A stretch of 64,000 nucleotides of DNA, from positions 544 through 64,543 of the forward strand of contig JALTFR010000032.1 in NCBI GenBank assembly GCA_027006785.1, read 5' to 3'. Source of the DNA: Thermoplasmata archaeon (GTDB lineage Archaea > Thermoplasmatota > Thermoplasmata > WALJ01). A program made the position numbers and the translations under genes. Of the stretch, positions 5,489 to 54,480 are shown one piece after another. Every line of letters begins with the position of its first letter. Positions within the stretch are counted from its first letter, which is position 1. The notes beneath the pieces are model-generated. The model did no database searches. It saw nothing but the letters and a program-made list of their open reading frames with translations, and was not told the origin of the DNA.

Positions 5489-6114
5489 TCTTCTTCCTCC
5501 TCACCTTTGAGCCTTGCTCCGTGCATGATTATCGCATAAACGCAGGCATAGTTCCTGAGCAGGCTTCTGACATATTCCTCATTCACTCCTATCTTCTTCA
5601 GGTTCGGCTTGTCTATCTTCGTTTCTCCGGTGAAGCCTCTGTCAGCCAGCTGATAGGATTCCAGCTGCTGGCCGGCTACTGTTATATTTTTTGCCACCTC
5701 GTCCCTGAACTTCTGGTGTATCACGCAGAAGTTGCAGACAGCCGTGTCCCTTATGCTGTTGTTGTACTCCTCAGCCACAAGGCGGTCGGCCTCGGGAACC
5801 TCTCCGACGCTGTACCTTATCCTCGTTATCGTCGGGTTGAACACACACTCGCGGAGCGCGTATATGTAGCCGACCACATCTCCGTCCACATCCGTTATCG
5901 CAAGGTCCGTAAGGGCGGTCACATCCCCCTCTATGGAGAATGCGGTCCTCCCTTCCCTGAGAGCCACATTGAAGGAGGGCCATCCCATGTAGGCTTCCTT
6001 GCCCATCCTTCTGGCCAGGTTCTCGCCGACCCTCAGCCAGTACTGTATCGTTCCTTCTACTCCTGCCTTCTCGCTCATGTCCTGGATGAGCGATACAAGC
6101 GCCACATCAAGCAT
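5485..6114 (-). CDS. V4R/methanogen-output-domain-like protein, Cys-rich paralogue
   Basis: VGENLARRMG, RECVF, VCNFCVIH, YACVY; Cys spacing resembles V4R-clan small-ligand/metal-binding domains. Confidence 0.65.
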   Translation of the reverse strand: MLDVALVSLIQDMSEKAGVEGTIQYWLRVGENLARRMGKEAYMGWPSFNVALREGRTAFSIEGDVTALTDLAITDVDGDVVGYIYALRECVFNPTITRIRYSVGEVPEADRLVAEEYNNSIRDTAVCNFCVIHQKFRDEVAKNITVAGQQLESYQLADRGFTGETKIDKPNLKKIGVNEEYVRSLLRNYACVYAIIMHGARLKGEEEEE

Positions 6115-7753: not shown

Positions 7754-7757
7754 TCGA

Positions 7758-10335: not shown

Positions 10336-10868
10336 TCTCTCTGCACCTCCTCCATTGCAGCATCCTCGAGCAGTTCTATCTCCTCGGGTGAAAGAAGGCT
10401 TTTCCCTTTTTCGGTCACGTCTTTTCCATGTATGAGTCCATTCTCCTCGGCTTTTTTAAGTCCATCCCGTATTTCATCCTCATCAACCTTCAGTACGGAC
10501 GCCATGATTTTTTCGTCTTTAATACCGAGCAGCATCAGTTTGACTATGCTCTCTGCAAGTTCCTCTCCTCCACCCTCGCCCTCGATCAGAGGAAGAAGCA
10601 GATGTCTCAGAGCAAGGAGCCTCTCGGCGTTTTTCCCTTTTATTGTAAGGCTCATGCTTTCGACTTCAAAACTCAGCGTTCCTTCTCTGTTCTCTATATT
10701 CTGAAGGTCCTTTATGGGTATCTCGTACCATATGTCTCCATCTGTGAGCATAAGGTTGTTCAATGTAAGATAGAGCGCTCCGTCTTTCCATACAAATCCC
10801 ATGTCGACATTGCTGTCAACTATGCGGAATGTGACATTGCCTACCTTCTGCATCTTACTGCTCATCAT
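10332..10868 (-). CDS. CheF-like protein (one PH-like domain plus C-terminal winged helix)
   Basis: Start placed at ATG 10868, about 22 nt below a TATA-like element. WKDGALYLTLNNLML...EIPIKDLQNIE and ...LLGI...DEDEIRDGLKKAEENGLI...VTEKGK resemble the CheF N- and C-terminal patterns. Confidence 0.55.
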   Translation of the reverse strand: MMSSKMQKVGNVTFRIVDSNVDMGFVWKDGALYLTLNNLMLTDGDIWYEIPIKDLQNIENREGTLSFEVESMSLTIKGKNAERLLALRHLLLPLIEGEGGGEELAESIVKLMLLGIKDEKIMASVLKVDEDEIRDGLKKAEENGLIHGKDVTEKGKSLLSPEEIELLEDAAMEEVQRE

Positions 10869-10885
10869 GCTTGTATGGGAGTTTA

Positions 10886-10900
10886 CCTTTAAATATTTTT
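10886..10900 (-). promoter_or_regulatory. TATA-like element of the KaiC-type operon
   Basis: Minus strand AAAAATATTTAAAGG about 22 nt upstream of ATG 10868, within an AT-rich divergent spacer. Confidence 0.45.
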
Positions 10901-11051
10901 CGTAGAGATGGGCATTTATATAACTATGGTTTAGTTTTTGAATAATGATAACAGTAATGAAAAAAAGATATATGGTATTTTTTAGGAATATCTTTTCGGA
11001 AGCGCCAATCACAATCTTTATATCTCAAATTTGGATGGGCAATGGATAGCG

Positions 11052-28577: not shown

Positions 28578-30425
28578 ATGATATCACCCGAACAGATGGC
28601 AAAGCTAGAGGCCATAGGCAGCGAGGAACTGATGGATTTCGTGAACAGGTATGTTGAACTGATGGAGCCGGATTCCGTCTTCGTATGCACGGATTCGGAT
28701 GAGGATTACAGATATATCCGGGAGAGAGCGCTCCGCGAGGGCGAGGAAAGGCAGTTGAAGGACTTCGGCTCGCACACGGTCCATTTCGACAACTACTACG
28801 ACCAGGCAAGGGACAAGAAGAACACGGCGATACTCACGGACGGGGAGGAAATACCCTTCATAAACACGAAGGACCGCAGCGAGGGCCTTGAGGAGATTCA
28901 CGAGATTATGAAAGAGATAATGAAGGGAAGGGAGATGATAGTTGCTTTCTTCTCGCTCGGCCCCAGAGAGTCCCCTTTCAGCATACTGGGCGTCCAGATA
29001 ACCGATTCCCCCTATGTAGCACACAGCGAGCACATGCTCTACAGGACAGCATACGATGAGTTCAAAAGGATTGGCAAGGGTGTGGAGTTCTTCAAATTCG
29101 TACACTCTGAGGGAGAGCTGGACGAGAGGAAGAGTTCCAAGAACCTCGATAAGAGGCGCGTCTACATAGACCTGAAGGAGAAGAGTGTCTACTCGGTAAA
29201 CACCCAGTATGGCGGAAACACCATAGGCCTCAAGAAACCGGCTTTCAGACTGACCATAGATCAGGCTGCCAGAGAGGGCTGGCTTTCTGAGCACATGTTC
29301 CTGATGGGTGTGAATGGCCCTGATGGAAGGGTCAGTTATTTCACAGGAGCGTTCCCCTCAATGTGCGGAAAGACATCTACATGCATGGTGAGAGGTGAAA
29401 GGCTCGTGGGTGATGACCTCTCATTCATAAGGAACATAGATGGCGAAGCAAGGGCAGTGAATGTGGAGAACGGTGTCTTTGGAATAATTCAGGGCATAAA
29501 TTCAAGGGATGACCCTCAGATATGGAATGTCCTGCACTCCGACAATGAGGTGATATTCTCCAACATTCTTGTCAGCGAGGGGCTACCTTACTGGACCGGC
29601 AAGGACGGAGAGCTCCCGGACAGGGGAGAGAACCATAGCGGAGAGTGGTGGAAGGGAAAGAAGGACGCAGAGGGCAACGAGATACCACCCAGCCATAAGA
29701 ACGCGAGGTTCACCGTCAGGCTCTCCTCTTTTGAGAATTTGGACGCGGACGCTCTTGATGCAGGAAAAGGAGTACCTCTCAGCGGAATAATCTTCGGAGG
29801 AAGGGATGCAGACACATGGCCACCTGTATGTGAGTCATTCAACTGGAAGCACGGCATCATAACGAAGGGGGCCTCTCTCGAGTCCGAGACAACGGCAGCA
29901 ACACTTGGCAAGGAGGGTGTGAGGAAGTTCAATCCCATGGCCATACTGGATTTCATGTCCATAAACCTCGGGAAGTACCTGAGAAACTACCTAGATTTCG
30001 AGAAAAAGCTTCAGAAGGTCCCGAAGGTATTTGCTGTGAATTACTTCATAAGGGATGAGAACGGCAATTTTCTGAATGAGAAGACTGACAAGGCGGTCTG
30101 GCTCAAGTGGATGGAATTGAGGGTTCACGGAGATGTCTCTGCGCTCGAGAGCCCGATAGGATACATACCGATATACCGGGACCTGAAAGCCCTGTTCAAA
30201 GAGGTGCTCAACAAAGACTACAGTGAGGAGGACTACGAGAAGCAGTTTACCATACGCGTACCTGAACTTCTCAACAAGATAGAGCGGATAGAAAAGGCAT
30301 ATCGCGAGATAGATGGAACACCTGAGGAGCTATTTGAGGAACTTGAGGAGGAAAGAGAGAGACTCGAGGAAACACTCAGGCATTATGGAAAGAGATTATC
30401 ACCGTTTGATATAGGATTCATATAA
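28578..30425 (+). CDS. pckG: GTP-dependent phosphoenolpyruvate carboxykinase
   Basis: YGGNTIGLKK, WLSEHM, GAFPSMCGKTST, LVGDD, FGGRD, RKFNPMA. Confidence 0.97.
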   Translation: MISPEQMAKLEAIGSEELMDFVNRYVELMEPDSVFVCTDSDEDYRYIRERALREGEERQLKDFGSHTVHFDNYYDQARDKKNTAILTDGEEIPFINTKDRSEGLEEIHEIMKEIMKGREMIVAFFSLGPRESPFSILGVQITDSPYVAHSEHMLYRTAYDEFKRIGKGVEFFKFVHSEGELDERKSSKNLDKRRVYIDLKEKSVYSVNTQYGGNTIGLKKPAFRLTIDQAAREGWLSEHMFLMGVNGPDGRVSYFTGAFPSMCGKTSTCMVRGERLVGDDLSFIRNIDGEARAVNVENGVFGIIQGINSRDDPQIWNVLHSDNEVIFSNILVSEGLPYWTGKDGELPDRGENHSGEWWKGKKDAEGNEIPPSHKNARFTVRLSSFENLDADALDAGKGVPLSGIIFGGRDADTWPPVCESFNWKHGIITKGASLESETTAATLGKEGVRKFNPMAILDFMSINLGKYLRNYLDFEKKLQKVPKVFAVNYFIRDENGNFLNEKTDKAVWLKWMELRVHGDVSALESPIGYIPIYRDLKALFKEVLNKDYSEEDYEKQFTIRVPELLNKIERIEKAYREIDGTPEELFEELEEERERLEETLRHYGKRLSPFDIGFI

Positions 30426-30484: not shown

Positions 30485-31438
30485 ATGGAGTCCTATGATA
30501 CAGTGATAATAGGTGCCGGCCCGGCAGGTTTGAATGCCGCCATATATGCAGTACGTGCCGGTCTGAGTGCCATAGTGCTGGACGGAAAGACAGCCGGTGG
30601 TCTGGTAGCAGAGTCTCCGGCCATAGAGAACTATCTCGGTTTCAGCAGCATAGACGGTATGAAACTCTCGGCCAAGTTCAAGACACATGCACAGCACTAT
30701 GTCCAGATAAAGGAAATAGAGCCAGTAACGGACATAATCAGAAAAGAAGATGTGTTTCTTGTGAAGACAGAGAGAGGCGAGTACTCCGCGAAGACCATAA
30801 TACTGGCAACGGGGAGCGAGCACCGCCACCTCGGAATACCCGGTGAGGAGGAGTTCTCCGGGCGTGGAGTTTCTTACTGCTCCACATGTGACGGATTCTT
30901 CTTCAGGAACAAGGAGGTTCTGGTCGTGGGTGGTGGAAATACCGCTGTCGGCGACGCTATATACCTTAAAGGTGTCGGCTGCAATGTCAGGCTCGTTCAC
31001 AGAAGGGGCTCACTCCGTGCTGAAAAGGCCCTGCAGGATAAGATGTTCTCCATGGACATACCTGTTATGTGGGATTCCGAGCTTGTGGAGATATATGGTG
31101 ATAGCAAGGTCAAAGGAGTCAGGGTAAGGAACAAAAAGACGGGTGAGATAAGCGATGTGGCGGTTGATGGTATTTTCATATCGATAGGGGAGGACCCGAA
31201 TAACGATCTTGCCAAAAATCTCGGTGTAAAGCTTGCTGATGATGGATACGTGATAATAGATAGGTTCAGCAGGACCAATGTACCGGGAGTGTATGCTGCC
31301 GGTGACCTTACCGGAGGGGTCAAGCAGATAATCGTAGCTGCATCCGAAGGTGCGGTAGCAGCTCTTTCTGCCTACGAGGACATAAACAACCCCTACTGGA
31401 AGAAAGATGAAGGAAGTGTAGAAGGATTTGAAATATGA
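30485..31438 (+). CDS. trxB: Thioredoxin reductase
   Basis: GAGPAG, GVSYCSTCDG, GGGNTA, YAAGD. Confidence 0.95.
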   Translation: MESYDTVIIGAGPAGLNAAIYAVRAGLSAIVLDGKTAGGLVAESPAIENYLGFSSIDGMKLSAKFKTHAQHYVQIKEIEPVTDIIRKEDVFLVKTERGEYSAKTIILATGSEHRHLGIPGEEEFSGRGVSYCSTCDGFFFRNKEVLVVGGGNTAVGDAIYLKGVGCNVRLVHRRGSLRAEKALQDKMFSMDIPVMWDSELVEIYGDSKVKGVRVRNKKTGEISDVAVDGIFISIGEDPNNDLAKNLGVKLADDGYVIIDRFSRTNVPGVYAAGDLTGGVKQIIVAASEGAVAALSAYEDINNPYWKKDEGSVEGFEI

Positions 31439-31448
31439 GGTGAGAAAA

Positions 31449-32099
31449 ATGGAACAACTGATAGATGAGGAATCAAGGCAGGAACTGAAAGAAAAGTTCC
31501 AGAAAGAGATGAAGAGGCCCGTCGAACTCATGGTCTTCATAGACCCGGAGGACAGCGAGCACAAGGATTATTCCGATTTCTCGGTGCAGATATCGAAGGA
31601 ACTGGCCGAGATAGACGACAGAATAAAGGTGAAAGTTTTCAACAAGGGCGACCCCGAGTGTGAGAAATACGATGTAAGCCGCTTTCCTAGCATACTCATA
31701 GACCCTGACTCCGGTTATAAGATAAGGTACACCGGAGCACCAGCCGGGCAGGAGGGCTGGGGATTCGTGGAGACAATAACCCTTGTTTCAAGGGATGACC
31801 CGGGGCTGCTTCCGGTAAATGCTGAGAAGCTCAGAGGCCTCAGCAAGGATGTGAAGGTGCAGGTATATGTAACACCTTCGTGCCCTTATTGCCCGATGGC
31901 AGTCGTTCTGGCCAACAAGGCGGCCATAGCTGCAAAGGGAAAGGTCATGGCAGAGTGTGTGGAAGCATACGAGAACCCGGACCTTGCGGACCTCTACAAT
32001 GTGAGCGCTGTGCCCCAGCAGGTTCACAATGATGGTGCTCTGATATCCGTTGGTGTGCAGCCTGAGGACAAGTTCGTGGACGACATACTGAAGTCCTGA
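31449..32099 (+). CDS. Protein disulfide oxidoreductase (two thioredoxin folds, only C-terminal CPYC present)
   Basis: RYTGAPAGQEGWGF, VTPSCPYCP, VSAVP; ATG follows SD GAGGTGA. Confidence 0.88.
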   Translation: MEQLIDEESRQELKEKFQKEMKRPVELMVFIDPEDSEHKDYSDFSVQISKELAEIDDRIKVKVFNKGDPECEKYDVSRFPSILIDPDSGYKIRYTGAPAGQEGWGFVETITLVSRDDPGLLPVNAEKLRGLSKDVKVQVYVTPSCPYCPMAVVLANKAAIAAKGKVMAECVEAYENPDLADLYNVSAVPQQVHNDGALISVGVQPEDKFVDDILKS

Positions 32100-41225: not shown

Positions 41226-42521
41226 ATGGATGCACAGGTAATTGCAGGTCTTTCAGTACTAATACTGGTCTATGTGCTCATAGGCTTCAATCTGATAAAC
41301 AGGACAGTTGCAGCGCTCTTCGGTGCCTTTCTGGTGGGACTTTTAGCTCTCATATTCGGGTTTGCAGGGCTTGACGATATCATTGATTACATAGATTTTG
41401 AAACCATAATCCTCCTCATGAGCATGATGATAATAGTTGGAATCCTCGGGAGAACAGGATTCTTTCAGGTTGTATCCTATAAAACAGCAAAGCTTGCAGG
41501 GGGTAGTTCGTGGAAGATACTTGTCGCCATAGCGCTCCTCACAGCCACACTCTCCGCATTTCTGGACAATGTCACCACCATACTCCTGGTTCTGCCGATA
41601 ACTCTGGAACTCACCAAGGCTATGGATATAAACCCGACACCATTCATACTTTCCGAGATTTTCGCATCCAACATAGGCGGAACAGCCACACTAGTGGGTG
41701 ACCCGCCGAATATAATGATAGGAACACAGGCCAATCTTGCTTTTATGGACTTCATATACAACCTTGCACCAATCGTTTTCATCGACCTCGGCGTGCTCAT
41801 TCTAATAATGTTTTTGATATACGGTAAAGAAATAATGTCTGCCAGTAAACTTTCCGAGGAAAAGCTCAGGGATATGGAGAAAAAGTACAGAATAGTGGAC
41901 CGCTCCCTGTATCACAAGTCCATAGGAATTCTCGTATTCACCATCGCTCTTTTCATAGTCGGAGAGGATTTTAACATCTCCTCGGCGGCTGCGGCGTTCA
42001 CCGGAGCCACCCTGCTTCTTCTCCTTACTCGCGAAGACATATACGGCGCTCTGGAACATGTGGAATGGCCGACCCTCCTCTTCTTCGCAGGGCTTTTCGT
42101 TGTTGTTGGCGGGGTGAACAGCATGGGTGTGCTGGACCTTATTGCCAATGGCATACTTGAGATTTCCCATGATAACATTGTACTCGCTATAATAGCAATA
42201 GTCTGGGTCTCTGCATTTACATCGGCAATAATAGACAACATACCATTCACAGCCACGATGATACCCGTGATATTCGTGATGTCCTCAAACCTGAATGTGC
42301 CCTCAGCCCCCCTGTTCTGGGCTCTCTCCCTTGGAGCATGTATGGGCGGAAACGGCACACTTATCGGCGCATCTGCCAATGTTGTAGGGGTGAGCATAGC
42401 GGAAAGGAATGGGATTATCATAGGTTTCAAGGGATTTTTGAGGAATGGAATGATTGTTATGATCAGTACCGTGGCGGTAGCCACGATATATCTCATAGTA
42501 AGATATGTATGGTTGGGGTGA
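41226..42521 (+). CDS. ArsB/NhaD-family (SLC13-like) ion transporter
   Basis: SAFLDNVTT, NIGGTATLVGDPPN, SAIIDNIP, GGNGTLIGASAN. Confidence 0.9.
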   Translation: MDAQVIAGLSVLILVYVLIGFNLINRTVAALFGAFLVGLLALIFGFAGLDDIIDYIDFETIILLMSMMIIVGILGRTGFFQVVSYKTAKLAGGSSWKILVAIALLTATLSAFLDNVTTILLVLPITLELTKAMDINPTPFILSEIFASNIGGTATLVGDPPNIMIGTQANLAFMDFIYNLAPIVFIDLGVLILIMFLIYGKEIMSASKLSEEKLRDMEKKYRIVDRSLYHKSIGILVFTIALFIVGEDFNISSAAAAFTGATLLLLLTREDIYGALEHVEWPTLLFFAGLFVVVGGVNSMGVLDLIANGILEISHDNIVLAIIAIVWVSAFTSAIIDNIPFTATMIPVIFVMSSNLNVPSAPLFWALSLGACMGGNGTLIGASANVVGVSIAERNGIIIGFKGFLRNGMIVMISTVAVATIYLIVRYVWLG

Positions 42522-44274: not shown

Positions 44275-45357
44275 CTACGGTATTATCTCTGTGGTGTTGT
44301 TCACTTCCGGGTAATTCAGGTCAGACTCCGATATCAGGCCGCTGTCCAGGGCCTTTTCCACCCTCGGCTTTATCTCTTTCATCAAATCTATGAGGTATTT
44401 CACGGTCTCGCATATAAGTTCAAACCCATCATCACCCCACAGCCTTTCCTTGTTTGCGAACAGGCATCTTCCACCGCAGACATCGTAATATGGACAGGAA
44501 GGGCACGGCTCATCGGGAAACACTGAGTTGCGGACATCTTCAGGCTCGCTCTTCTCTATGTTTCCAACATGGTTCCATTCAAATTCCCCTCCTATGGGGC
44601 AGGCAAGTATCTCCCCATCGGTTGATATTGCAAAGGCATCCCTTCCTGAACCGCAGGGAAGACCGGGTTTCTCAAGACCGAACAATCTCTTCATGACCCC
44701 CTGAAAAGGTACTATTCCCGGGACCTTTCCCATATTCTCTATTGAATCTATCCAGAAATCAGCCAGTTTTTTGAGGCCGGGATAGTAGGATTCGCTCAGC
44801 CATCGGTTAAAGTCCTTCCATGAGTCATCCGGATCCCACACCACATTGAGCTGCCAGTGCACATGGTCGAAAGGACGGAGAGAAAGAAGATGCATGACAT
44901 CTCTGTAGATGTCGCTCTCCTGTGAGACAGCCATTCTCGCAATAAGGTCCCCTTCAAAACCTCTTTTTCTTATAAGTTCAGCATTTTTTACCGCCGCTTT
45001 ATACACTCCTTTTCCACGGTAATAGTCCGTTATTTCCTCCGCCCCGTCCAGAGATATAAGTATCGTATGCATCCTTTTCAGCATCCCGGGTCTCAGAACA
45101 TGGAGGAAGATGCCGTTGGTCTGGAGAAAGAAATTTCTGGCAGGGATTTCCTTCATGATTCTCTCCATGTAATCCATATTCAGAAGTGGCTCTCCGCCGT
45201 AGAAGGCTATGTCAGCTTCGGGGTCATTCTCTATGAACCTCTTCAGGTGATCGAAATCATAGCTTATCTCGTGTGGCATGACCTCTTCGGGTATGCTTCC
45301 GCCGCAGTATCGGCAGTTCAGGTTGCATACCGGTGTCGTGAATATGAACCAGAGCAC
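44275..45357 (-). CDS. Radical SAM/SPASM protein (AF0577/TIGR04084-like)
   Basis: CNLNCRYC, FYGGEPL, LQTNG, SLDG, CGSG...CP, CPSCPYYDVCGGRC; GTG start. Confidence 0.85.
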   Translation of the reverse strand: MLWFIFTTPVCNLNCRYCGGSIPEEVMPHEISYDFDHLKRFIENDPEADIAFYGGEPLLNMDYMERIMKEIPARNFFLQTNGIFLHVLRPGMLKRMHTILISLDGAEEITDYYRGKGVYKAAVKNAELIRKRGFEGDLIARMAVSQESDIYRDVMHLLSLRPFDHVHWQLNVVWDPDDSWKDFNRWLSESYYPGLKKLADFWIDSIENMGKVPGIVPFQGVMKRLFGLEKPGLPCGSGRDAFAISTDGEILACPIGGEFEWNHVGNIEKSEPEDVRNSVFPDEPCPSCPYYDVCGGRCLFANKERLWGDDGFELICETVKYLIDLMKEIKPRVEKALDSGLISESDLNYPEVNNTTEIIP

Positions 45358-45495
45358 AGGGTGGGATTGCAGGTTAGATATTACTTTTTCCCCACCTCTG
45401 AATTCATCACTTCCAGTACACGAAAATGTCCTTCTGCACGCAGATAAAGAATATTGTTATATAGGAAAAGGATTTTGCCCGCCTTAGGCGTTAAA

Positions 45496-45792
45496 ATGGT
45501 AACGCAAACAGAAATTAAGAAGATGCTGGAGAACGGGACCTCCCAAGTTCCGCATGGAGAGGTCTACATAGTAGAGGAAAGATGCAAAGGTTGCGGTCTG
45601 TGCATAGCGTTCTGTCCCAAGCATGTGCTGGTTCAGTCAGACAGGATAAACGAAAAGGGATACCATCCACCTGAACTGGTGGAAGTACCACCCACCGATA
45701 TATGTATAGGGTGCGGGATGTGCGAGCGCATATGTCCGGATTTCGCCATTTTTGTGAAAACAGACAAGGACAAGGAGAAAAAGAGGGATTGA
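45496..45792 (+). CDS. korD: 2-oxoacid:ferredoxin oxidoreductase delta subunit (2x[4Fe-4S])
   Basis: CKGCGLCIAFCP, CIGCGMCERICPDFAI. Confidence 0.88.
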   Translation: MVTQTEIKKMLENGTSQVPHGEVYIVEERCKGCGLCIAFCPKHVLVQSDRINEKGYHPPELVEVPPTDICIGCGMCERICPDFAIFVKTDKDKEKKRD

Positions 45793-45793
45793 T

Positions 45794-46933
45794 GTGAGCA
45801 ATGAAATCCTTGAAGGAGAGTATTTTTTGAGCGGAGATGCAGCTGCAGCAGAGGGTGCCGTGGCCGCAGGTTGCAAGGTCTTTGCCGGATACCCAATAAC
45901 TCCATCCAGTGAGGTGGCGGAAAAGCTAGCAAGAAGGCTCCCGCAGGTAGGGGGCGTGTTCATACAGATGGAAGACGAACTCGGTTCAATAGCTGCCATA
46001 CTTGGTGCCTCGTGGGGAGGAAAGAAGAGCATGACAGCCACTTCAGGCCCGGGTTTCAGCCTTATGATGGAGAACTACGGCCTTGGAATGATGACAGAGA
46101 CGCCAACGGTCATCGTGAATGTTCAGAGGGGCGGCCCCTCCACAGGATTGCCCACACTTCTGGGCCAGGGAGAGTTCATGCAGGCCAAGTTCGGTTCCCA
46201 CGGGGTCTTTGAAGCAATAGCACTGGCACCTGAATCACCGCAGGAATGCTTCGATTTCACCATAAAGGCCTTCAATCTGGCCGAGAAGTACCGACAGCCC
46301 GTCGTCGTATTGATGGATGAATCCACAGGTCACCTTTTCGAGAAGGTCAGGATTCCTCCGGAGGACGAGATTGAGATAATAAACAGAAAGAAGCCAAAAG
46401 AGGTCCCCTATCCACCGTTCATGCCAGATGATGACTTGATACCGCCAATGCCGATTGTTGGCGAAGGCCACCAGATACATGCCACCGGCCTCACGCATGA
46501 CGAGTACGGAAGGCCCACCATAACTGCCGAAGCACAGGAAAAATACGTGAAGCGCTTGGTCGAGAAGATAAGAAAGCATGCCGACGAGATAATGGATTAT
46601 GAAGAGGTCATGACAGATGATGCGGATGTGATCGTCGTGGCATATGGAATAACCGCAAGGTCGGCCAGGAGAGCCATAATACAGGCAAGAGAGAAAGGAA
46701 TAAAGGCCGGTCTCATAAGGCTGAAGGTGGTGTGGCCGTTCCCGGACAAGATTCTCCAGAAATACGCGGATAAGAAGTTTGTAGTTGCGGAGGTCAATCA
46801 GGGCCAGGCCCTTATCATGGTAGAGAGAGCCATAAGAAAGAGCGCCACCTTCGTTGGGAAGATGGGCGGAGAACCACACAGGCCGGAAGAGATTCTCAAA
46901 GGAATAGAGGAGGCATACAATGCCAATTCATAA
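45794..46933 (+). CDS. korA: 2-oxoacid:ferredoxin oxidoreductase alpha subunit
   Basis: FAGYPITPSSE, QMEDELGS, TATSGPGFSLM, QRGGPSTG. Confidence 0.92.
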   Translation: MSNEILEGEYFLSGDAAAAEGAVAAGCKVFAGYPITPSSEVAEKLARRLPQVGGVFIQMEDELGSIAAILGASWGGKKSMTATSGPGFSLMMENYGLGMMTETPTVIVNVQRGGPSTGLPTLLGQGEFMQAKFGSHGVFEAIALAPESPQECFDFTIKAFNLAEKYRQPVVVLMDESTGHLFEKVRIPPEDEIEIINRKKPKEVPYPPFMPDDDLIPPMPIVGEGHQIHATGLTHDEYGRPTITAEAQEKYVKRLVEKIRKHADEIMDYEEVMTDDADVIVVAYGITARSARRAIIQAREKGIKAGLIRLKVVWPFPDKILQKYADKKFVVAEVNQGQALIMVERAIRKSATFVGKMGGEPHRPEEILKGIEEAYNANS

Positions 46934-47843
46934 GGCAGAACACCATCCTCTGGATGCGTATCTCAGGACAGAAAGGCTCCCGCATGTATGGTGTCCGGGC
47001 TGCGGTCTGGGAATAGCGCTGGGTGCCTATCTAAGAGCGCTCCAGAATGTCGGTTTTGACCCGCAGGAAACCGTCATGGTCTCGGGAATAGGCTGCTCCG
47101 GAAGGGCGGCCGGATATGTCAAGATGGACTCCTTCCACACAACTCACGGAAGGGCAATACCCTTTGCCGTGGGGCTCAAGGCCGCAAGGCCGGAGTTGAA
47201 CGTGACCGTGTTCAGCGGTGATGGAGACCTGTTCTCCATAGGTGGCAACCACATACTCCACGCTGCTAGAAGGAATGTGAACATCACTGTGCTTGCCATA
47301 AACAACTATGTCTACGGAATGACCGGTGGCCAGCTTGCGCCGACGACCCCGGAGTCATCCATAACTACGACATCCCCCTACGGTAACATAGAGTCGCCAT
47401 TCAACATAGCCGGGCTCATGGCCGTGGCAGGTGCATCCTATGTGGCCCGCTGGACCACGGTTCACGAGAGAAGGCTTCAGAAGTCCATAGAGAAGGCACT
47501 GACCAAGAGGGGATTCTCAATAGTCGAGATAATGTCCCCGTGCCCCACAACATTCGGAAGAAGGAACAACATGAGGGGCATAGTGGACTCCATGATGTAT
47601 TACAAGAAGTATTCGGTAATAAAAGAGCATCCGAACCCGCTGGACGGAGTTATAAAGCCGGGTGAGAAGTTCATAGTAGGGGAGTTCATGGACGCCCCGG
47701 ATGAGCCCACCTTCGAGGACAAGCTTGAGGAGCTGAAGAACAAGGAGTTCCTGAAGACAAGTCAGGCTGACAGAACAACATGGATACTGGAGCACAGAAG
47801 ACATCTTGAGACACTTGCTAAGATAATCGGAGGTGAGCAGTGA
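46920..47843 (+). CDS. korB: 2-oxoacid:ferredoxin oxidoreductase beta subunit
   Basis: WCPGCG, GIGCSGR, HGRA, GDGDLFSIGGNH, YGMTGGQ, SPCPT. Confidence 0.92.
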   Translation: MPIHKAEHHPLDAYLRTERLPHVWCPGCGLGIALGAYLRALQNVGFDPQETVMVSGIGCSGRAAGYVKMDSFHTTHGRAIPFAVGLKAARPELNVTVFSGDGDLFSIGGNHILHAARRNVNITVLAINNYVYGMTGGQLAPTTPESSITTTSPYGNIESPFNIAGLMAVAGASYVARWTTVHERRLQKSIEKALTKRGFSIVEIMSPCPTTFGRRNNMRGIVDSMMYYKKYSVIKEHPNPLDGVIKPGEKFIVGEFMDAPDEPTFEDKLEELKNKEFLKTSQADRTTWILEHRRHLETLAKIIGGEQ

Positions 47844-48388
47844 TGGCCCGCATAGAGATGCAGATAGGTGGTTTCGGAGGCCAAGGTGTCATACTGGCAG
47901 GCCTGGTAATAGCCAGAGCGCTCTCCCTCTACGACGGAAGGGAAGCGGTGTTCACACAGGCGTATGGGCCCGAGGCCAGGGGTGGAGCGTCTGCGTCCGG
48001 AATAGTCGTGGACGATGAAAGGGTTGACTACCCGTACCCCCTGCACCCCGAGATACTGGTGCTCATGTCGCAGGAAGCAATGACGACATACCTTCCAAAC
48101 ATGAGAAAGGGAGGCATTCTGATAATAGAGGAGAACCTGGTGCACCTTGATGGTGAGCCGGATGTTTCCGAACTTCATAAGATTCCTGCCACGAAGATAG
48201 CTGAGGAACTAGGGAACAAGATAGTCACCAACATAGTCATGGTCGGCTTCATAGCGAAGGTCGTAGGAGACAGGATAGGCCTGAAGAAGGAGAGTATCAA
48301 GAAGTCGGTGCTCGAAATGGTCCCTGCAAAGGTCAGGGAATTGAACGAAAAAGCGTTTGAGATGGGATATAACTACGAGGAGGCATGA
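47840..48388 (+). CDS. korC: 2-oxoacid:ferredoxin oxidoreductase gamma subunit
   Basis: GFGGQGVIL, YGPEARGG, NIVMVG. Confidence 0.92.
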   Translation: MMARIEMQIGGFGGQGVILAGLVIARALSLYDGREAVFTQAYGPEARGGASASGIVVDDERVDYPYPLHPEILVLMSQEAMTTYLPNMRKGGILIIEENLVHLDGEPDVSELHKIPATKIAEELGNKIVTNIVMVGFIAKVVGDRIGLKKESIKKSVLEMVPAKVRELNEKAFEMGYNYEEA

Positions 48389-48389
48389 A

Positions 48390-49112
48390 ATGTCCAAAGA
48401 GAAAGAGAATGATATGAAGATGATAACCGTGTACATAATGGGAAAGGCCTACAAGGTGCCTTTCGGGCTAACGATAATGAAGGCCATGGAGTATGCGGGA
48501 TACAGGTTCATAAGAGGATCAGGGTGCAGGGCAGGATTCTGCGGTGCCTGCGCCACGGTCTACAGGAGAAAGGGAGAGTACAAGCTCAGGACCGCCCTTG
48601 CCTGCCAGACCACTGTCGAGGACGGAATGTACCTGGCACAGCTTCCCTTTGTGCCATCCAACAGGAAGGAGTACGACATAGAGGAACTTGACCCGAAGAA
48701 GAATGTCCTTTCAGAGTATTACCCTGAGATAAACAGGTGCGTTTCGTGCAACACATGTACCAAGGCCTGCCCGCAGGAACTTCAGGTCATGGACTATATT
48801 CAGGCCTCAATAAGGGGGGACTATAAGCTGGTGACCTCCCTCTCATTTGACTGCATACAGTGTGGCCTTTGCGTCGTGAGGTGCCCCGCCGAGATAACCC
48901 ACTACCATGTGGCACAGCTTGCCAGAAGGCTCTATGGAAAATACTATTCACCCGTACCCCAGCACCTTCTGGACAGGTTGAAGGAGATAGAGGAAGGGAA
49001 GTTCGATTCAGAGATAGAGGAGCTGAAAAAGATGGATGCTAAGAAGCTTGAAGAGGTCTATGTCGCAAGGGACATACAGAAGATACCCAGAGGGGAGGTG
49101 GCTGGAGAATGA
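48390..49112 (+). CDS. Fumarate reductase-type Fe-S subunit ([2Fe-2S] plus 2x[4Fe-4S])
   Basis: GCRAGFCGAC...LAC; CVSCNTCTKACP; CIQCGLCVVRCP. Confidence 0.88.
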   Translation: MSKEKENDMKMITVYIMGKAYKVPFGLTIMKAMEYAGYRFIRGSGCRAGFCGACATVYRRKGEYKLRTALACQTTVEDGMYLAQLPFVPSNRKEYDIEELDPKKNVLSEYYPEINRCVSCNTCTKACPQELQVMDYIQASIRGDYKLVTSLSFDCIQCGLCVVRCPAEITHYHVAQLARRLYGKYYSPVPQHLLDRLKEIEEGKFDSEIEELKKMDAKKLEEVYVARDIQKIPRGEVAGE

Positions 49113-50758
49113 AGCTCATAGACGGATACACCGAGGAGATGCGCGAGTCCATAGAGAAGGTCGAGAAGACAAGGGCGGAGCGCATGAAGAAGAGCTATCC
49201 TGCCCTGACGATGGAGGAAAGGGAGGAGGTTCTCAATAAATACCATCCTGACTACAAGCCGGACAAAAAGAGGGCTGTCAGGGTCGGACCAAATAAGGGG
49301 GAAGTCGCGCCACATGAGGTCGTTGACCTTCTGGAGGCCTATCCTCTGATAACTGCAAAAGATGTTGACCTCAAGACCATAGACTACGATGTGGACCTCC
49401 TGATAATCGGAGGAGGTGGAGCTGGAACTGTGGCCGCGCTCTGGGCCAATGATAACGGCATATCTGCCGAGAACATACTGATGGCCACAAAGCTCAGGCA
49501 CGGAGATGCCAACTCAATGATGGCGCAGGGAGGCATACAGGCGGCGGATACACCTGAGGACAGCCCTGCAAGGCATTATCTCGATGTCATAGGAGGAGGT
49601 CACTTCGCGAACAAGCCGGAACTTGTGGAAGCGCTCGTCAAGGACGCTCCTTTCATACTCAAATGGCACGAGGAACTGGGCGTCATATATGACAAGGACG
49701 AGAACGGGAACTACATAGAGAGGCCCGGCGGCGGAACATCAAGGTTCAGGCTCCATTCTGCCAAGGACTACACCGGAATGGAGATAATGAGGGTCATCAG
49801 GGATGAGTTCAGGAACAGGCAGATACCTGTTCTAGAGTTCACACCTGCAGTGGAACTTCTAAAAGATGAGTCCGGAAATGTGGCAGGAGCGGTCCTCTTC
49901 AACATGGAGACCGAGCAGTACTACACCGTGCGTGCAAAGGCCACCGTGCTTGCGACAGGCGGTTTCGGAAGGCTTCACATACAGCAGTTCCCAACGACGA
50001 ACCATTACGGAGCGACTGCAGACGGGCTTGTGATGGCATACAGGGCCGGAGCGAAGCTCAGGGACCTTGACACCGTCCAGTACCACCCGACAGGCGCAGC
50101 ATATCCGGAGCAGATAGTCGGTCTCCTGATAACCGAGAAGGTAAGGGGAATGGGAGCGCAGCCTGTGGACAAGAACGGAGACCTCTTCGTCTTCCCGATG
50201 GAACCGAGGGATGTTGAGGCCGCCTCATTCATAAAGCGCTGTGCCGACGGAAAATGCGTGCAGACGCCCACGGGAATGCATGGAATCTGGCTCGACTCCC
50301 CGATGATAGAGGAAATCGAAGGTGAGGGTGCAATAAGGAAGAATCTCGATGCCATGTACAGGATGTACAAGCGCTTTGGAATAGACATGACCAAGGACCC
50401 GATACTCGTCTTCCCCACACTGCACTACCAGAACGGAGGAGTTGAGATAGATGCGAGCGCTCAGACATCCATACCAGGACTGTTCGCAGGAGGAGAGGTC
50501 GAAGGTGGAGTGCATGGAAAGAACAGGCTGATGGGAAATTCGCTGCTCGATTACAATGTCTTCGGAAGAAGGGCTGGAATAAGCGCTGCCCAGTGGGCCT
50601 CCAAGCGCTCCAAGCCCGGAAAGCTGAGCCTCGCCCATGTGGATTCCTTCGTAAAGGAACTGGAAAAGGCGAAGATACCTCCGGAGCGCAGGTCTCCGAT
50701 GCTTCTGCCAGAGTATAGAGGCGAAAAGGTTCTCGCAAGGATGCTTGATATCCTCTAA
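49109..50758 (+). CDS. Fumarate reductase / succinate dehydrogenase-family flavoprotein (TfrA-like)
   Basis: IGGGGAG, ANSMMAQGG, QYHPTG, TEKVRG, PRD, HYQNGG, NRLMGNSL. Confidence 0.9.
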   Translation: MKLIDGYTEEMRESIEKVEKTRAERMKKSYPALTMEEREEVLNKYHPDYKPDKKRAVRVGPNKGEVAPHEVVDLLEAYPLITAKDVDLKTIDYDVDLLIIGGGGAGTVAALWANDNGISAENILMATKLRHGDANSMMAQGGIQAADTPEDSPARHYLDVIGGGHFANKPELVEALVKDAPFILKWHEELGVIYDKDENGNYIERPGGGTSRFRLHSAKDYTGMEIMRVIRDEFRNRQIPVLEFTPAVELLKDESGNVAGAVLFNMETEQYYTVRAKATVLATGGFGRLHIQQFPTTNHYGATADGLVMAYRAGAKLRDLDTVQYHPTGAAYPEQIVGLLITEKVRGMGAQPVDKNGDLFVFPMEPRDVEAASFIKRCADGKCVQTPTGMHGIWLDSPMIEEIEGEGAIRKNLDAMYRMYKRFGIDMTKDPILVFPTLHYQNGGVEIDASAQTSIPGLFAGGEVEGGVHGKNRLMGNSLLDYNVFGRRAGISAAQWASKRSKPGKLSLAHVDSFVKELEKAKIPPERRSPMLLPEYRGEKVLARMLDIL

Positions 50759-50769
50759 GAGGGTTTGAC

Positions 50770-53175
50770 ATGGCTGAAAAGAAGAAGCCGAGGATTGGCG
50801 TATATGTCTGCCACTGCGGCGGTAACATCTCAGACACAGTGTATGTTGACCAGGTGGCGGAATATGCCAAGAACATGGAAGACGTTGTGGTCGTACGCAG
50901 CATCTCACACATGTGCTCCGAAGAGGGACAGAATGCAATAATCGAAGATATCGGAAAGGAGCACCTCGACAGGGTGGTAGTGGCAGCATGCTCCCCTCAG
51001 TTTCAGGGAGAGACATTCAAGAAGGCAGCTGCGAAGGCGGGCCTCAACCCGTACATGATAGAGATGGCCAACATAAGGGAACAGAGCGCATGGCCGCACT
51101 TCGAGGACAGGCAGAAGGCAACTGAGAAGGCAGAGGTACTTACGAGGATGGCTGTAGAGCGGATGAGGGAGGCAGAGCCCGCCAAACCCGAGAAGATAGA
51201 GATAGGAAAGACCGTACTGGTAATCGGAGCCGGAATCGCAGGTATTCAGGCCTCACTCGACCTTGCCGATGCTGGCTTTGATGTCCATCTTGTGGAGAAG
51301 AAACCAGTCATAGGCGGCCACATGGCACAGCTTTCCAGAACATTTCCTACAAACGACTGTGCATCGTGCATTCTTTCTCCAAAGATGGCGGATGTCGTGG
51401 AGCATCCGGGAATACACCTTCACAGGAATTCAGAGATTGTGGAGGCCAAGGGGACCGTCGGAAATTTCCAGATAAAGATCAAGGAAAATCCGGTCTATGT
51501 AGACCCGGTTGCATGTACTGCATGTAACAGGTGTGCGGAGGTCTGCCCCGTACTGGTGCCAAACGAGAACGACCTCGGTCTGACTCTCAGAAAGGCCATA
51601 GACATACCTTCGGGCATTGCGGTGCCTCACGCATATGTGCTTGATGACAAGGCCTGCCTAGGTCTGGAGCCGCTGGCATGTGGAAAATGCGCCGAGGTCT
51701 GTGACGTGAATGCGATAAACTATGACCAGAAGCCAAAGGAGATAGATGTGAAAGCAGATACCATAATCGTAGCAACAGGTTATGATATCTTCGACGCAAA
51801 GCTCAAGCCACAGTACGGCTATGGAAAGTTCGAAAATGTCCTGAACGCCCTTGAACTTGAAAGAATACTTGTGCATATGGGCGAAGGCAAGATGATAAAG
51901 AAGCTCGGAAAGAAGATCGCTTTCGTGCAGTGCGTCGGCTCCAGGGATGCACAGGTCGGGAACCTTTATTGTTCAAGGATATGCTGCATGTACGCGACGA
52001 AACTGGCGCTCATGCTTAAGAGTGCGGATCCATCAAAAGACATTTACATATTCTACACTGACCTGAGGGCCTATGGAAAGGGATTCGAGGAGTATTATCG
52101 CAGGGCTCAGGAGCTGGGTATTAAATATGTGAGAGGAAGGCCGGGAGAGCTGCATGAGAATCCTGAGAACAAGAAGATAATCGTTAAGGTTGAGGATACC
52201 CTTACGAGAAACATACTCCAGGGAGAGTTCGACCAGGTGATACTCTCAGTGGGACTGACGCCCAGTAAGGGAACCATAGAGATTGCGGAGATGCTCAAGC
52301 TCCCGAGAAGCCCGGACGGATTCCTGCAGGAAGCACATGCAAAGTTCAAACCGCTGGATACTGCTGTCGAAGGTATATTCATAGCCGGAACCGCTCAGGG
52401 ACCGAAGGATATACCTGATAGCGTTGCACAGGCGAGTGGGGCCGCTGCAAGGGCCATAAGGCTGATGAACCGCGGAGAACTGGAACTCAGCCCCGTCAAG
52501 GCCACCATAGACACTGAACTCTGTGATGGTTGTGGAAAGTGTGTAGAGGCCTGCCCTGCGGATGCGATATATATGATGGGTGGATTCGCCGCTGTCAATA
52601 CCCCAGCATGTAAGGGCTGCGGAGCATGTATATCATCCTGTCACACCGGCGCCATAGACCTGAAGGTATTCAGCAATGCCAAGGTTATGGAAGAGATCGA
52701 GGCAGCGCTCGAGGACAAGAAGCCCGGAGAGAACAGGATACTGCTCTTTGCTGACGATATGTGCACATACAGGCTGGCGGATGGTGTAGGTACTGCCAAG
52801 ATGAAATATTCACCAGATGTCCTCATAATACGGGTACCATCCAGTTCAAGGGTCACTCCTGAGATGATGGCAAAGGCATTCGAGCTCGGCGCAGATGGAA
52901 TAATGCTGGGAGAATGTGAGCCAGCCGTTTCACCCTATCTGGGAACAGGGCCGGTCATAGCCAGACAGGTGGAGGAACTCAAATCAATGCTTGAAAAGGC
53001 AGGTATAGAGAAGGAGAGGGTTCTTTTCACCCAGTATGTCACAGTGATGCTCTCCGCATTTGTAAACCACACGAACAGGATGTCGGACCTCACGAGAAAG
53101 CTGGGCAACATACCTGAGGAGAAGAGAAAGAAACTGGCCGAGATAGTCAAACAGATGAAGGAGGAATCTAAGTGA
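50770..53175 (+). CDS. hdrA: Heterodisulfide reductase subunit A with fused, degenerate MvhD domain
   Basis: VCHCGGNI, AACSP, IGAGIAG, KTFPTNDC-type RTFPTNDCASC, inserted ferredoxin, QCVGSRD, CSRICC, C-terminal ferredoxin, then MvhD-like domain. Confidence 0.95.
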   Translation: MAEKKKPRIGVYVCHCGGNISDTVYVDQVAEYAKNMEDVVVVRSISHMCSEEGQNAIIEDIGKEHLDRVVVAACSPQFQGETFKKAAAKAGLNPYMIEMANIREQSAWPHFEDRQKATEKAEVLTRMAVERMREAEPAKPEKIEIGKTVLVIGAGIAGIQASLDLADAGFDVHLVEKKPVIGGHMAQLSRTFPTNDCASCILSPKMADVVEHPGIHLHRNSEIVEAKGTVGNFQIKIKENPVYVDPVACTACNRCAEVCPVLVPNENDLGLTLRKAIDIPSGIAVPHAYVLDDKACLGLEPLACGKCAEVCDVNAINYDQKPKEIDVKADTIIVATGYDIFDAKLKPQYGYGKFENVLNALELERILVHMGEGKMIKKLGKKIAFVQCVGSRDAQVGNLYCSRICCMYATKLALMLKSADPSKDIYIFYTDLRAYGKGFEEYYRRAQELGIKYVRGRPGELHENPENKKIIVKVEDTLTRNILQGEFDQVILSVGLTPSKGTIEIAEMLKLPRSPDGFLQEAHAKFKPLDTAVEGIFIAGTAQGPKDIPDSVAQASGAAARAIRLMNRGELELSPVKATIDTELCDGCGKCVEACPADAIYMMGGFAAVNTPACKGCGACISSCHTGAIDLKVFSNAKVMEEIEAALEDKKPGENRILLFADDMCTYRLADGVGTAKMKYSPDVLIIRVPSSSRVTPEMMAKAFELGADGIMLGECEPAVSPYLGTGPVIARQVEELKSMLEKAGIEKERVLFTQYVTVMLSAFVNHTNRMSDLTRKLGNIPEEKRKKLAEIVKQMKEESK

Positions 53176-53576
53176 CACGTGTTGTGATGCTGAATGATAA
53201 TAGCGAGGCCTTCACAAAGAAGGTCAATGAGATGACGAACGACATGATAACCCTCTGTGAACAGTGCGGAATATGCAGTACCAGTTGCCCTGTTGCAGAG
53301 GACATGGATATACCTCCTTCGGAGATAATGAGGCTGGTACAGCTGGGAGACGAGTATGTTCTGGAGACAAAGGCGATATGGGTCTGTGCATCATGCTACA
53401 CATGTACGGTGCGCTGCCCGAGAGGAGTGGACCTTTCCAAGGTTACCGAGGCATTGAGGCAGATAAATCTGAGAACGAACGTCAATTATCTGGATATTGA
53501 CAATCTCGATTCCGAGGAAGTCGAGGAGTTACCGGCAATAGCGCTCGTCAGTGCCATGAGGAAGTATACAGGGTGA
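53172..53576 (+). CDS. hdrC: Heterodisulfide reductase subunit C
   Basis: CEQCGICSTSCP, IWVCASCYTCTVRCPRG. Confidence 0.93.
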   Translation: MTRVVMLNDNSEAFTKKVNEMTNDMITLCEQCGICSTSCPVAEDMDIPPSEIMRLVQLGDEYVLETKAIWVCASCYTCTVRCPRGVDLSKVTEALRQINLRTNVNYLDIDNLDSEEVEELPAIALVSAMRKYTG

Positions 53577-53577
53577 T

Positions 53578-54480
53578 ATGATGAAGAAGTTTCCATACTA
53601 CCCGGGATGCACGCTGAAACAGTATCCAAAGAAGTTCGGAATACCATCCGAGGAGTCTGCCAGAGCACTGGGACTGGAGATGGTCGAGATTCCGAGGTGG
53701 AACTGCTGCGGTGCTGTCGCATCCCTTACTGCAGATGATATGATGCATCAGGTGGCTCCGATACGAAACCTGATAAGGGTTCAGGAGATGAATGACGAGG
53801 GTCTTGTGGACAACGAGTACAGGCTTGTGGTTTTCTGCTCCATGTGTTTCAACACACTGAAAAGGGCAAACATGATGGTAAAGGAGAACGAAGCTGCCCT
53901 CAATACCATAAACGAGTTCATGGACAGAGAGCAGGACTACAAGGCCAATGTTGAAGTCGTTCATTTCCTTGAAATACTCCGGGACATGGGCTTTTACAGG
54001 CTGGAAGACATGATAAAGAAGCCACTGAAGGGTCTGAAAATAGCTCCTTACTACGGATGCAACCTTCTCAGGCCGAAAGAGGTCGGTATAGACAACCCCG
54101 AGGCTCCGACAATAATGGAGAACTTCGTGGAGGCTCTGGGCGCAGAGGTCATTGATAACCCGCTGAAGTCACTGTGTTGTGGAAGCTATCATACCGTTGG
54201 CGGTCACAAGGACATAGTTGCGGAAAGGACATACGCCATTGTCAATGCAGCCAGAAAAGCCGGTGCCGATATGATGATAACGGCATGTCCGCTCTGTGCT
54301 TTCAATCTGGACGACCGGCAGGCCCTGACCAAGGAACTCCATCCTGAGTTTCAGCATATGCCGGTTCTGTACTTCACACAGATTCTGGCCTTTGCTCTCG
54401 GACTGGAGGACAAAGCCGGCCTCGAGGAGAACTATGTGGATGCCCGCCCGATTCTTAGAGAAAAGGGCCTGATGGACTGA
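53578..54480 (+). CDS. hdrB: Heterodisulfide reductase subunit B
   Basis: Two CCG domains: YYPGC...WNCCG...CSMC and YYGC...CCG...ACPLC. Confidence 0.94.
   Translation: MMKKFPYYPGCTLKQYPKKFGIPSEESARALGLEMVEIPRWNCCGAVASLTADDMMHQVAPIRNLIRVQEMNDEGLVDNEYRLVVFCSMCFNTLKRANMMVKENEAALNTINEFMDREQDYKANVEVVHFLEILRDMGFYRLEDMIKKPLKGLKIAPYYGCNLLRPKEVGIDNPEAPTIMENFVEALGAEVIDNPLKSLCCGSYHTVGGHKDIVAERTYAIVNAARKAGADMMITACPLCAFNLDDRQALTKELHPEFQHMPVLYFTQILAFALGLEDKAGLEENYVDARPILREKGLMD

Follow-up and report, generated by a model that had tools for sequence, protein, structure and literature searches.

A probable cofactor-less, structural MvhD module fused to HdrA in a Thermoplasmata archaeon

Background

The subject of this study is a gene, here denominated hdrA*, on a stretch of 64,000 nucleotides from a Thermoplasmata archaeon (assembly GCA_027006785.1, contig JALTFR010000032.1, positions 544 to 64,543 of the forward strand), which is called the window in the following. 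Its product is an HdrA-type flavoprotein of the heterodisulfide reductase (Hdr) kind that is fused to a C-terminal domain of the MvhD fold. In the canonical complexes, electrons pass from the donor via the C-terminal ferredoxin domain of HdrA and the [2Fe-2S] cluster of MvhD to the flavin of the partner HdrA (PMC13580544, PMC12350162, PMC13518236). The MvhD cluster is the final relay on the way from the donor module to the flavin adenine dinucleotide (FAD) that carries out the bifurcation (PMC12350162, PMC13580544, PMC13518236), so that an earlier note on this DNA, which had named it the electron entry port, agrees with the literature. MvhD and VhuD have been documented both as a relay and as a docking element (PMC13518236, PMC13580544).

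In one published view, HdrA-MvhD fusions arose several times (PMC12054007), and surveys and reviews count every one of them as a [2Fe-2S] carrier (PMC5296606, PMC5861303, PMC12054007). The fused domain of HdrA* lacks the ligands for such a cluster, keeps the fold and is conserved in this state throughout a whole clade. Our analysis suggests that it is probably a cofactor-less structural module within an Hdr-coupled soluble fumarate reductase which electrons would enter by another route.

Results

The hdrA* gene and its product

The gene was delimited as an open reading frame (ORF) and its domains were assigned with Pfam. Its relevant features, in window coordinates, are:

50770..53175, plus strand: hdrA*, encoding an 801-amino-acid (aa) HdrA-type flavoprotein fused to an MvhD-fold domain
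51085..51087, plus strand: codon AGC of Ser106, in the sequence NIREQS (NIREHC in M. thermolithotrophicus HdrA; Cys in most relatives)
51358..51369, plus strand: the C197-x-x-C200 pair (FPTNDCASC), kept
52738..53106, plus strand: MvhD/FlpD-fold domain, aa 657-779 (Pfam FlpD, PF02662, E 7.8e-27, 123 of 123 profile positions)

HdrA* consists of an N-terminal cluster domain, a thioredoxin-reductase-like FAD domain, an inserted and a C-terminal ferredoxin domain and finally the MvhD-fold domain. Residues 5-649 align over their full length with the solved HdrA 5odc_A (E 1e-211), and the Glu of the LELER sequence in the FAD domain is present in the window protein. For the comparison within the subfamily, an alignment of 168 HdrA* sequences was used, to which all counts out of 168 refer. 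The 26 cysteines that make up six [4Fe-4S] sites and the CxxC pair, as well as the flavin lysine K411 (K409 in M. thermolithotrophicus HdrA), are invariant in all 168. In canonical complexes the CxxC pair is located between the MvhD cluster and FAD (PMC13580544, PMC13518236).

Absence of the cluster ligands

The last 161 residues of HdrA* were aligned with the solved MvhD and ElpC chains 5odc_D (E 5.5e-17), 9sw2_D, 8rvu_F and 7bkb_F; the residue numbers C13, C16, C42, C67, C72, His68 and Asp71 are those of M. marburgensis MvhD. The first motif of the solved chains, FCCNWC[ST]Y, reads F660-A-D-D-M-C665-T-Y in HdrA*, the second, RVMCSGR, reads R688-V-P-S691-S-S-R, and the third, GCHxGDCHY, reads E715-C716-E-P-A-V-S721-P-Y. 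C13, C42 and C72 are thereby replaced by D662, S691 and S721, and the two cysteines that are kept, C665 (C16) and C716 (C67), are the only ones in the domain. The codons of the replaced motifs (GCT, GAC, GAT, TGC, TCC, TGT and TCA) are all ordinary sense codons. The earlier note had read the same three motifs with two remaining cysteines and without UGA codons, and this description is borne out.

Its canonical motif has to be amended in one respect. The loss of the ligand set stands, but the first Cys of the "CC" does not belong to the motif, as this position is variable (L/A/C/N) in 19 published HdrA-MvhD fusions (Yan et al. 2017, PMC5296606, Figs S1 and S3). C13, C16, C42, C67 and C72 are essentially kept in those fusions, a few from Methanosarcinales reading Ala at C42 in the text copy of the alignment. 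Since Cys16 of MvhD has been described as an "additional" conserved cysteine between cluster and FAD and not as a ligand (PMC13580544), and since the remaining four are conserved, C13, C42, C67 and C72 probably form the ligand set, of which HdrA* keeps one of four (C716). In addition, His68 and Asp71, which face the CxxC pair of HdrA in M. marburgensis (PMC13580544), are replaced by E717 and V720. With three ligands gone, the fused domain cannot be the canonical relay. The reading given in the earlier note, a closed or rewired port, is supported in part by this.

The fold itself is kept. The FlpD match falls entirely within 52720-53175, the end of the gene. A model of the domain calculated with AlphaFold2 from 25 family members has a confidence (pLDDT) of 94.4, and Foldseek superimposes it on MvhD of 5ODH (5odh_D) with a TM score of 0.88 and a root mean square deviation of 1.7 Å. 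The earlier note had proposed an alignment of HdrA-MvhD fusions and such a structural overlay; the overlay on MvhD gives a good fit, and in the alignments the published fusions keep the cysteines and the relatives of HdrA* share the replacements.

The domain was also searched against a library of 1.8 billion proteins, represented at 50% identity, and the best 150 representatives were inspected for their Cys pattern. The full C-C-C-C-C pattern is present in 114 of these. A few other FlpD lineages among them (P0131, P0240, P0221, P0204, P0216, P0218 and P0164) also lack the Cys set, with different fixed replacements, such as D-C-D-C-D or D-I-S-x with a gap at C72, and some are part of proteins of 700-790 aa. 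Loss of the MvhD cluster on more than one occasion is therefore possible. There are 5 strong matches (E<=1e-30) to the MvhD-type domain among the representatives, a number that is no measure of family size; one possible reason for it is that full-length HdrA* sequences are clustered under other HdrA representatives.

HdrA* as a conserved subfamily

The best 120 full-length matches to the window protein (55-100% identity, 785-814 aa) all show the pattern FADDxxxY / RVPSxSR / GE[CS]ExxxSPY. The replacement residues show next to no variation in the clade: D662 is found in 167 of the 168 sequences, S691 in 167, E717 in 162, E715 in 155 and S721 in 150. The mean column identity of the domain is 68%, with FADD, RVPS, GADG, SPY and FVTVM as conserved motifs. 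Because the replacement residues hardly vary, the domain is under purifying selection in its remodelled form and has not decayed. As judged from these alignments, the ligand-less state is an old, fixed trait of the whole HdrA clade, and the wording "has lost" in the earlier note is not tenable for an event peculiar to the window genome. An artefact of sequencing or assembly or a pseudogenised domain, for which no supporting point was found, is next to impossible: the frame is open, the codons are ordinary and the identical pattern recurs in 168 independent sequences from many samples with the column identity given above, so that this explanation is already refuted by the conservation across the clade.

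In a survey of loci with one genome per species, 59 hdrA* loci were collected, all of them in metagenome-assembled genomes (MAGs). Every FlpD domain fused to HdrA* in these loci is without the ligands, and all 16 full-length canonical FlpD copies, either stand-alone or on a second HdrA, carry C13, C16, C42, C67 and C72. According to their titles, the archaeal hosts are Thermoplasmata, Hecatellales and Bathyarchaeia, and the bacterial ones are Sumerlaeota, Fermentibacteria, KSB1, WOR-3, Aerophobetes, Eisenbacteria, Stahlbacteria, Cloacimonadota, Caldisericota, Coprothermobacterota, Thermotogaceae and Spirochaetales. HdrA* thus spans three archaeal groups and at least 10 named bacterial phyla or candidate phyla. 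In two Caldisericota MAGs (L057:6641-10471 and L061:6647-10477) the stop-to-stop frame with HdrA* comprises 1277 aa, and HdrA is matched in two pieces (residues ~6-320 and ~283-798), which points to an additional domain or a sizeable insertion within HdrA*.

The best NCBIfam model for the window protein is that of HdrA2 (NF040770), which aligns residues 8-781 with positions 1-774 of 777 and scores 917.7 bits, under the curated cutoff of 1100 bits. The name "subunit A2", given by JGI to one homolog, raised the possibility that M. acetivorans HdrA2 shares the Cys-poor pattern, but the published alignments show that its cysteines are kept. Identity of the window protein to M. acetivorans HdrA2 is 40%, and this value, the score below the cutoff and the kept cysteines of HdrA2 fit the view of a repeated origin of such fusions (PMC12054007). 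As the published HdrA-MvhD fusions including HdrA2 keep their cysteines, HdrA* is a distinct and widespread subfamily that apparently has not been described. A literature search for a cluster-less fused MvhD yielded no mention in the publications covered, an earlier mention in a review outside these being possible.

The variable cysteines and Ser106

The two cysteines left in the domain are of interest because C665 and C716 correspond to C16 and C67 of MvhD, which border the cluster towards FAD (PMC13580544). Of the 168 sequences, 92 have both, 75 have neither and 1 is mixed. In this subclade the pair might make up a small metal site or a redox-active dithiol/disulfide that takes the place of the [2Fe-2S] cluster in its former pocket and relays electrons to C197/C200 and FAD. 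The invariance of C197/C200 and the thiol- or selenol-based relays now proposed at the HdrA CxxC pair (PMC13518236) would be in line with this. On a neighbour-joining tree, however, the pattern reduces to a few independent events, namely 3-4 changes, and what looked like strong covariation is a weak lead only. In addition, Thr or Ser occupies both sites in nearly half of the clade, whose synteny does not differ and whose domain is otherwise conserved, so that a function shared by the clade cannot depend on the Cys pair. A dithiol or metal relay in the subclade is therefore quite unlikely.

The replacement residues could in principle also bind a cluster themselves. Asp and Ser occasionally ligate Fe-S clusters in other proteins, and Asp662, Ser691, Cys716 and Ser721, perhaps together with Cys665, are all potential oxygen or sulfur donors and strictly conserved. 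Against this, 75 of the 168 sequences lack Cys at either variable site and have at most a stray Cys beside the C42 site, we know of no all-oxygen ligand set for a [2Fe-2S] cluster, and the prediction of the fold, made without a cofactor, is of very high confidence. A cluster held by such unusual ligands is accordingly very improbable.

The earlier note had also pointed to the NIREQS sequence in the N-terminal domain. The substitution is real; residue 106 is Cys in 109 of the 168 sequences, Ser in 56, Asp in 2 and Ala in 1, Ser106 thus being found in about one third of the clade, including the closest, Thermoplasmata-like relatives. NIREQC is no strict motif either, since the functional HdrA of M. 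marburgensis has Asp at this position (NIREHD). The N-terminal cysteines 14, 16, 49 and 74 are still present for a cluster. S106 is an independent substitution at a variable position, and we see no reason to tie it to the change in the fused domain.

Gene neighbourhood of hdrA*

The gene order in the window is korDABC, Fe-S protein, flavoprotein, hdrA*, hdrC, hdrB. The genes around hdrA* are:

45454..48388, plus strand: korDABC, a four-subunit 2-oxoacid (2-oxoglutarate-type):ferredoxin oxidoreductase (NCBIfam), directly upstream
48390..49112, plus strand: Fe-S protein with a [2Fe-2S] domain (Fer2_4) and a pair of [4Fe-4S] motifs, similar to TfrB/SdhB in their N-terminal half
49109..50758, plus strand: TfrA/FrdA-like flavoprotein of 549 aa (TfrA E 2e-97, below the cutoff)
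53172..53576, plus strand: hdrC, 134 aa, two [4Fe-4S] motifs (HdrC E 9.5e-21), with synteny kept in almost every related locus
53578..54480, plus strand: hdrB, 300 aa, two complete CCG motifs (CCG E 2.9e-20, in two stretches)

The likely start of the Fe-S protein is the ATG at 48390, the mechanical ORF beginning at 48357; its product is 58% identical to that of the syntenic gene at locus L003. The flavoprotein reaches 327 bits with the TfrA model (cutoff 718) and is also below the cutoffs for FrdA/SdhA and NadB. In comparison with E. coli SdhA (1nek_A), it keeps the His/Arg/His/Arg of the dicarboxylate site (the His of HPTG, the Arg of RG, the His of HY and the Arg of NRL) and has Asn at the position of the His that binds FAD covalently, a combination typical of soluble fumarate-reducing enzymes. 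The TfrB model is matched in parts only, by the Fe-S protein (2.3e-10) and by HdrB (9.3e-09). HdrB also matches the SdhE-type model (1.4e-46) and the HdrB model TIGR03288 (3e-44). HdrC is short when compared to the methanogen models of ~190 aa; it matches their first ~110 positions, and the C-terminal part is missing throughout the module.

The earlier note had linked the fusion to neighbouring genes for an Fe-S protein and a flavoprotein, and synteny confirms this, Fe-S and/or flavoprotein genes adjoining hdrA*CB in 39 of the 43 loci that were informative. They are mostly located downstream of hdrB, and upstream in the window and in the closest relative. The "ferredoxin gene" of the note, by contrast, is the delta subunit of the four-subunit oxidoreductase. 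Kor flanks hdrA* in many relatives, and succinyl-CoA synthetase and malic enzyme are likewise frequent neighbours, e.g. SucCD in L003 and malic enzyme in L053, both belonging to branches of the tricarboxylic acid cycle. The window also encodes a GTP-type phosphoenolpyruvate carboxykinase (PEPCK; 28578-30425) and a di/tricarboxylate transporter of the CitMHS family (41226-42521), which fit a C4-dicarboxylate, reductive-branch metabolism. Genes of methanogenesis were not found in the window.

The best 120 relatives of the flavoprotein are 67-100% identical and hence more conserved than HdrA*; none is from a cultured organism, and the named hosts are Thermoplasmata, Asgard archaea (Thor-, Odin- and Heimdallarchaeota), Theionarchaea, Methanofastidiosia, Thermococci and Acetothermia/Bipolaricaulota. 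A core of hdrCB, Fe-S protein and flavoprotein without HdrA* exists in an Asgard genome, where it is accompanied by a canonical HdrA, a Cys-complete MvhD and MvhGA, and in a Methanofastidiosia genome, where it stands alone.

Some further genes of the window were noted. A radical S-adenosylmethionine (SAM)/SPASM protein of the TIGR04084 (AF0577) family (E 5e-141) is encoded at 44275-45357 on the minus strand, just upstream of kor, and a radical SAM gene occurs in the same region in the closest relative (L001). A flavoprotein of the thioredoxin reductase type is encoded at 30485-31438, and the gene directly behind it (31428-32099) specifies a protein whose C-terminus carries a thioredoxin domain; this pair is a possible thiol/disulfide system in an organism with an HdrB of unassigned substrate. 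Finally, four ORFs of considerable length without a Pfam match (6107-7816, 7758-8567, 9442-10335 and 10332-11012, all on the minus strand) lie around a GvpD-like/KaiC-like ATPase (2749-4278) and a KaiC-family ATPase (8564-9439).

A second HdrA and possible electron donors

In 11 of the 59 loci hdrA* adjoins the gene for another HdrA, which has a canonical MvhD with all its cysteines. MvhG and/or MvhA are also present in 6 of these 11, and in several such loci the genes are arranged as one string that contains only one hdrCB pair. This would allow a different point of entry, namely that the intact port is provided in trans: HdrA* would pair with a canonical HdrA whose MvhD is Cys-complete and which, together with MvhAG or another donor, is encoded in another part of the genome, and its own MvhD copy could lose the cluster because the arm of the partner feeds the HdrA* flavin. 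The dimeric arrangement of the canonical complexes, in which the FAD of each protomer is fed by MvhD of its counterpart (PMC12350162), is in favour of this, as are the heterodimeric HdrA pairs proposed for anaerobic methanotrophic (ANME) archaea (PMC9012536).

On the other hand, queries with the proteins of locus L003 detected no mvhD, mvhG, mvhA or second hdrA in the window, only the fused domain being matched, and the 10 kilobases (kb) past its right edge (~74 kb inspected in total) contain housekeeping genes only, without mvh genes or a second hdrA. Most related loci with 8-10 kb of flanking sequence lack a second HdrA or canonical MvhD as well. Moreover, the N-terminal domain and the CxxC pair are kept in both types of HdrA, so that there is no complementary loss which would mark an obligate heterodimer. 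An intact mvhD/mvhAG as partner, which by the earlier note would speak against its own reading, thus applies to part of the family, 11 related loci having the intact mvhD and 6 of them mvhG and/or mvhA; it is missing from the inspected DNA of the window organism and may lie elsewhere in its genome. We regard entry through such a partner as a tentative possibility; it is compatible with a cofactor-less structural role of the fused domain and differs as to where the electrons enter.

No hydrogenase, Fdh or Elp partner genes are located nearby in the window. In one bacterial locus a GltD/NfnB-like protein of the NAD(P)H type is encoded just upstream. An Asgard MAG (L066:614-3019) carries hdrA and a canonical mvhD in the same frame with one stop codon between them; the hdrA frame contains one internal stop and has no gene called, possible explanations being an error of sequencing, codon recoding and a split or fusion of recent origin.

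Discussion

Relation to known systems

HdrA* resembles M. acetivorans HdrA2 (of HdrA2B2C2, the "type Ia" fusions) in that HdrA is colinear with a C-terminal MvhD-fold domain, in its length of ~790-800 aa and in its HdrBC partners. It differs in that HdrA2 and the 18 other published fusions keep C13, C16, C42, C67 and C72 and are assumed to carry [2Fe-2S], whereas the window protein lacks three ligands, and in its association with a fumarate-reductase-like pair instead of methanogenesis. The stand-alone proteins MvhD, VhuD, ElpC and FlxD have the same fold (TM 0.86-0.88) and the same place after the C-terminal ferredoxin domain of HdrA, and the extra Cys16 of stand-alone FlpD proteins is kept in the subclade of the window protein. 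Unlike in these, the domain is covalently fused, the ligand set is absent and His68/Asp71 are changed to Glu/Val.

When compared to the solved complexes HdrABC-MvhAGD, Fdh-Hdr and Elp-Hdr (5ODC, 7BKB, 8RVU, 9SW2), the HdrA core (aa 5-649), the cluster cysteines, the CxxC pair and the flavin Lys are the same, but no cluster is present at the end of the donor arm, Ser takes the place of C106, HdrC with its 134 aa is short and a fumarate-reductase-like pair presumably serves as terminal acceptor module. The gene module shares with TfrAB of Methanothermobacter the TfrA-like flavoprotein, an Fe-S part similar to the N-terminal half of TfrB and the CCG chemistry of an HdrB-type protein; TfrB is however split here into a separate Fe-S protein, HdrC and HdrB.

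Co-location with korABCD and hdrABC is also known from the kor-tfrAB-(flxABCD-)hdrABC clusters of tubeworm symbionts, Thioflavicoccus and Pseudoclostridium thermosuccinogenes, and such clusters have earlier been proposed to encode fumarate-reducing, possibly bifurcating complexes (PMC6315080, PMC7282089). In contrast to those, flxABCD is absent here; the window HdrA carries the fused cluster-less domain. A module of this kind was thus suspected before to be an Hdr-linked fumarate reductase; what is added here is its fusion protein with a remodelled, cluster-less MvhD domain.

A proposed role for the fused domain

We propose that the MvhD-fold domain of HdrA* would serve as a scaffold of the "mobile arm" of HdrA, which in canonical complexes consists of the N- and C-terminal HdrA domains together with MvhD, and as a docking surface. 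Five partners, HdrA*, HdrC, HdrB, the protein with one [2Fe-2S] and two [4Fe-4S] clusters and the TfrA-like flavoprotein with non-covalent FAD, may assemble into a soluble Hdr-coupled fumarate reductase of a reductive C4/C5 branch that comprises PEPCK, the step from fumarate to succinate and 2-oxoglutarate:ferredoxin oxidoreductase. The FAD of HdrA*, with its intact bifurcation signature and all six [4Fe-4S] sites, would send electrons along a high-potential branch that passes through HdrC and HdrB, then through the Fe-S protein and the flavoprotein, and ends at fumarate, the transfer taking place either directly or via a thiol/disulfide carrier as in TfrAB. A low-potential branch would lead from FAD to ferredoxin, which might be used by the adjoining Kor enzyme. 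The donor would enter not via a fused [2Fe-2S] cluster but either as a hydride donor at or near the flavin or through a separately encoded donor module.

Several points weigh against this proposal. All HdrA* relatives found are from MAGs, the members being known by sequence and not by biochemistry, and 4 of the 43 informative loci have no Fe-S and flavoprotein genes nearby. Since the flavoprotein is below the cutoffs for TfrA, FrdA/SdhA and NadB, fumarate is a putative substrate only. The C-terminal ferredoxin domain, the canonical feeder of the MvhD cluster, is fully conserved, and the proposal does not specify what uses it; neither does it name an electron donor for this organism. Furthermore, the strict conservation of D662, S691, S721 and E717, together with the paired C665/C716, exceeds the needs of a pure scaffold and hints at another ligand or a redox function.

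This last point could be accounted for if the old cluster pocket had been rebuilt as an Asp-Ser-Ser-Glu site, with the Cys pair added in the subclade, that binds another ligand or acts as a thiol relay to C197/C200 and the flavin. We consider a pocket rebuilt in this way unlikely, and a cofactor-less structural module whose complex receives its electrons by another route remains the interpretation that we hold to be probable.

Conclusion

HdrA* constitutes a large separate clade, comprising among others Thermoplasmata, Bathyarchaeia, Cloacimonadota, WOR-3, Caldisericota and Eisenbacteria, in which the assumption that each HdrA-MvhD fusion carries a [2Fe-2S] cluster cannot hold. As the clade is without the ligands, cofactor counts and models of the electron path that are derived from methanogens are wrong for HdrA*.

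Structural papers of 2025-2026 call the passage of electrons onto the bifurcating FAD unresolved. If the pocket were indeed rebuilt, HdrA* would be a natural variant of electron delivery to this FAD without an Fe-S relay, and many uncultured anaerobes would possess a new kind of bifurcating fumarate reductase that feeds ferredoxin to 2-oxoglutarate synthase. In any case, HdrA* is a natural "cluster-minus" MvhD with which flavin loading and the roles of MvhD beyond electron carriage can be probed, and the five-gene module bears on the reductive C4/C5 branch and the ferredoxin balance of uncultured anaerobes in sediments and digesters.

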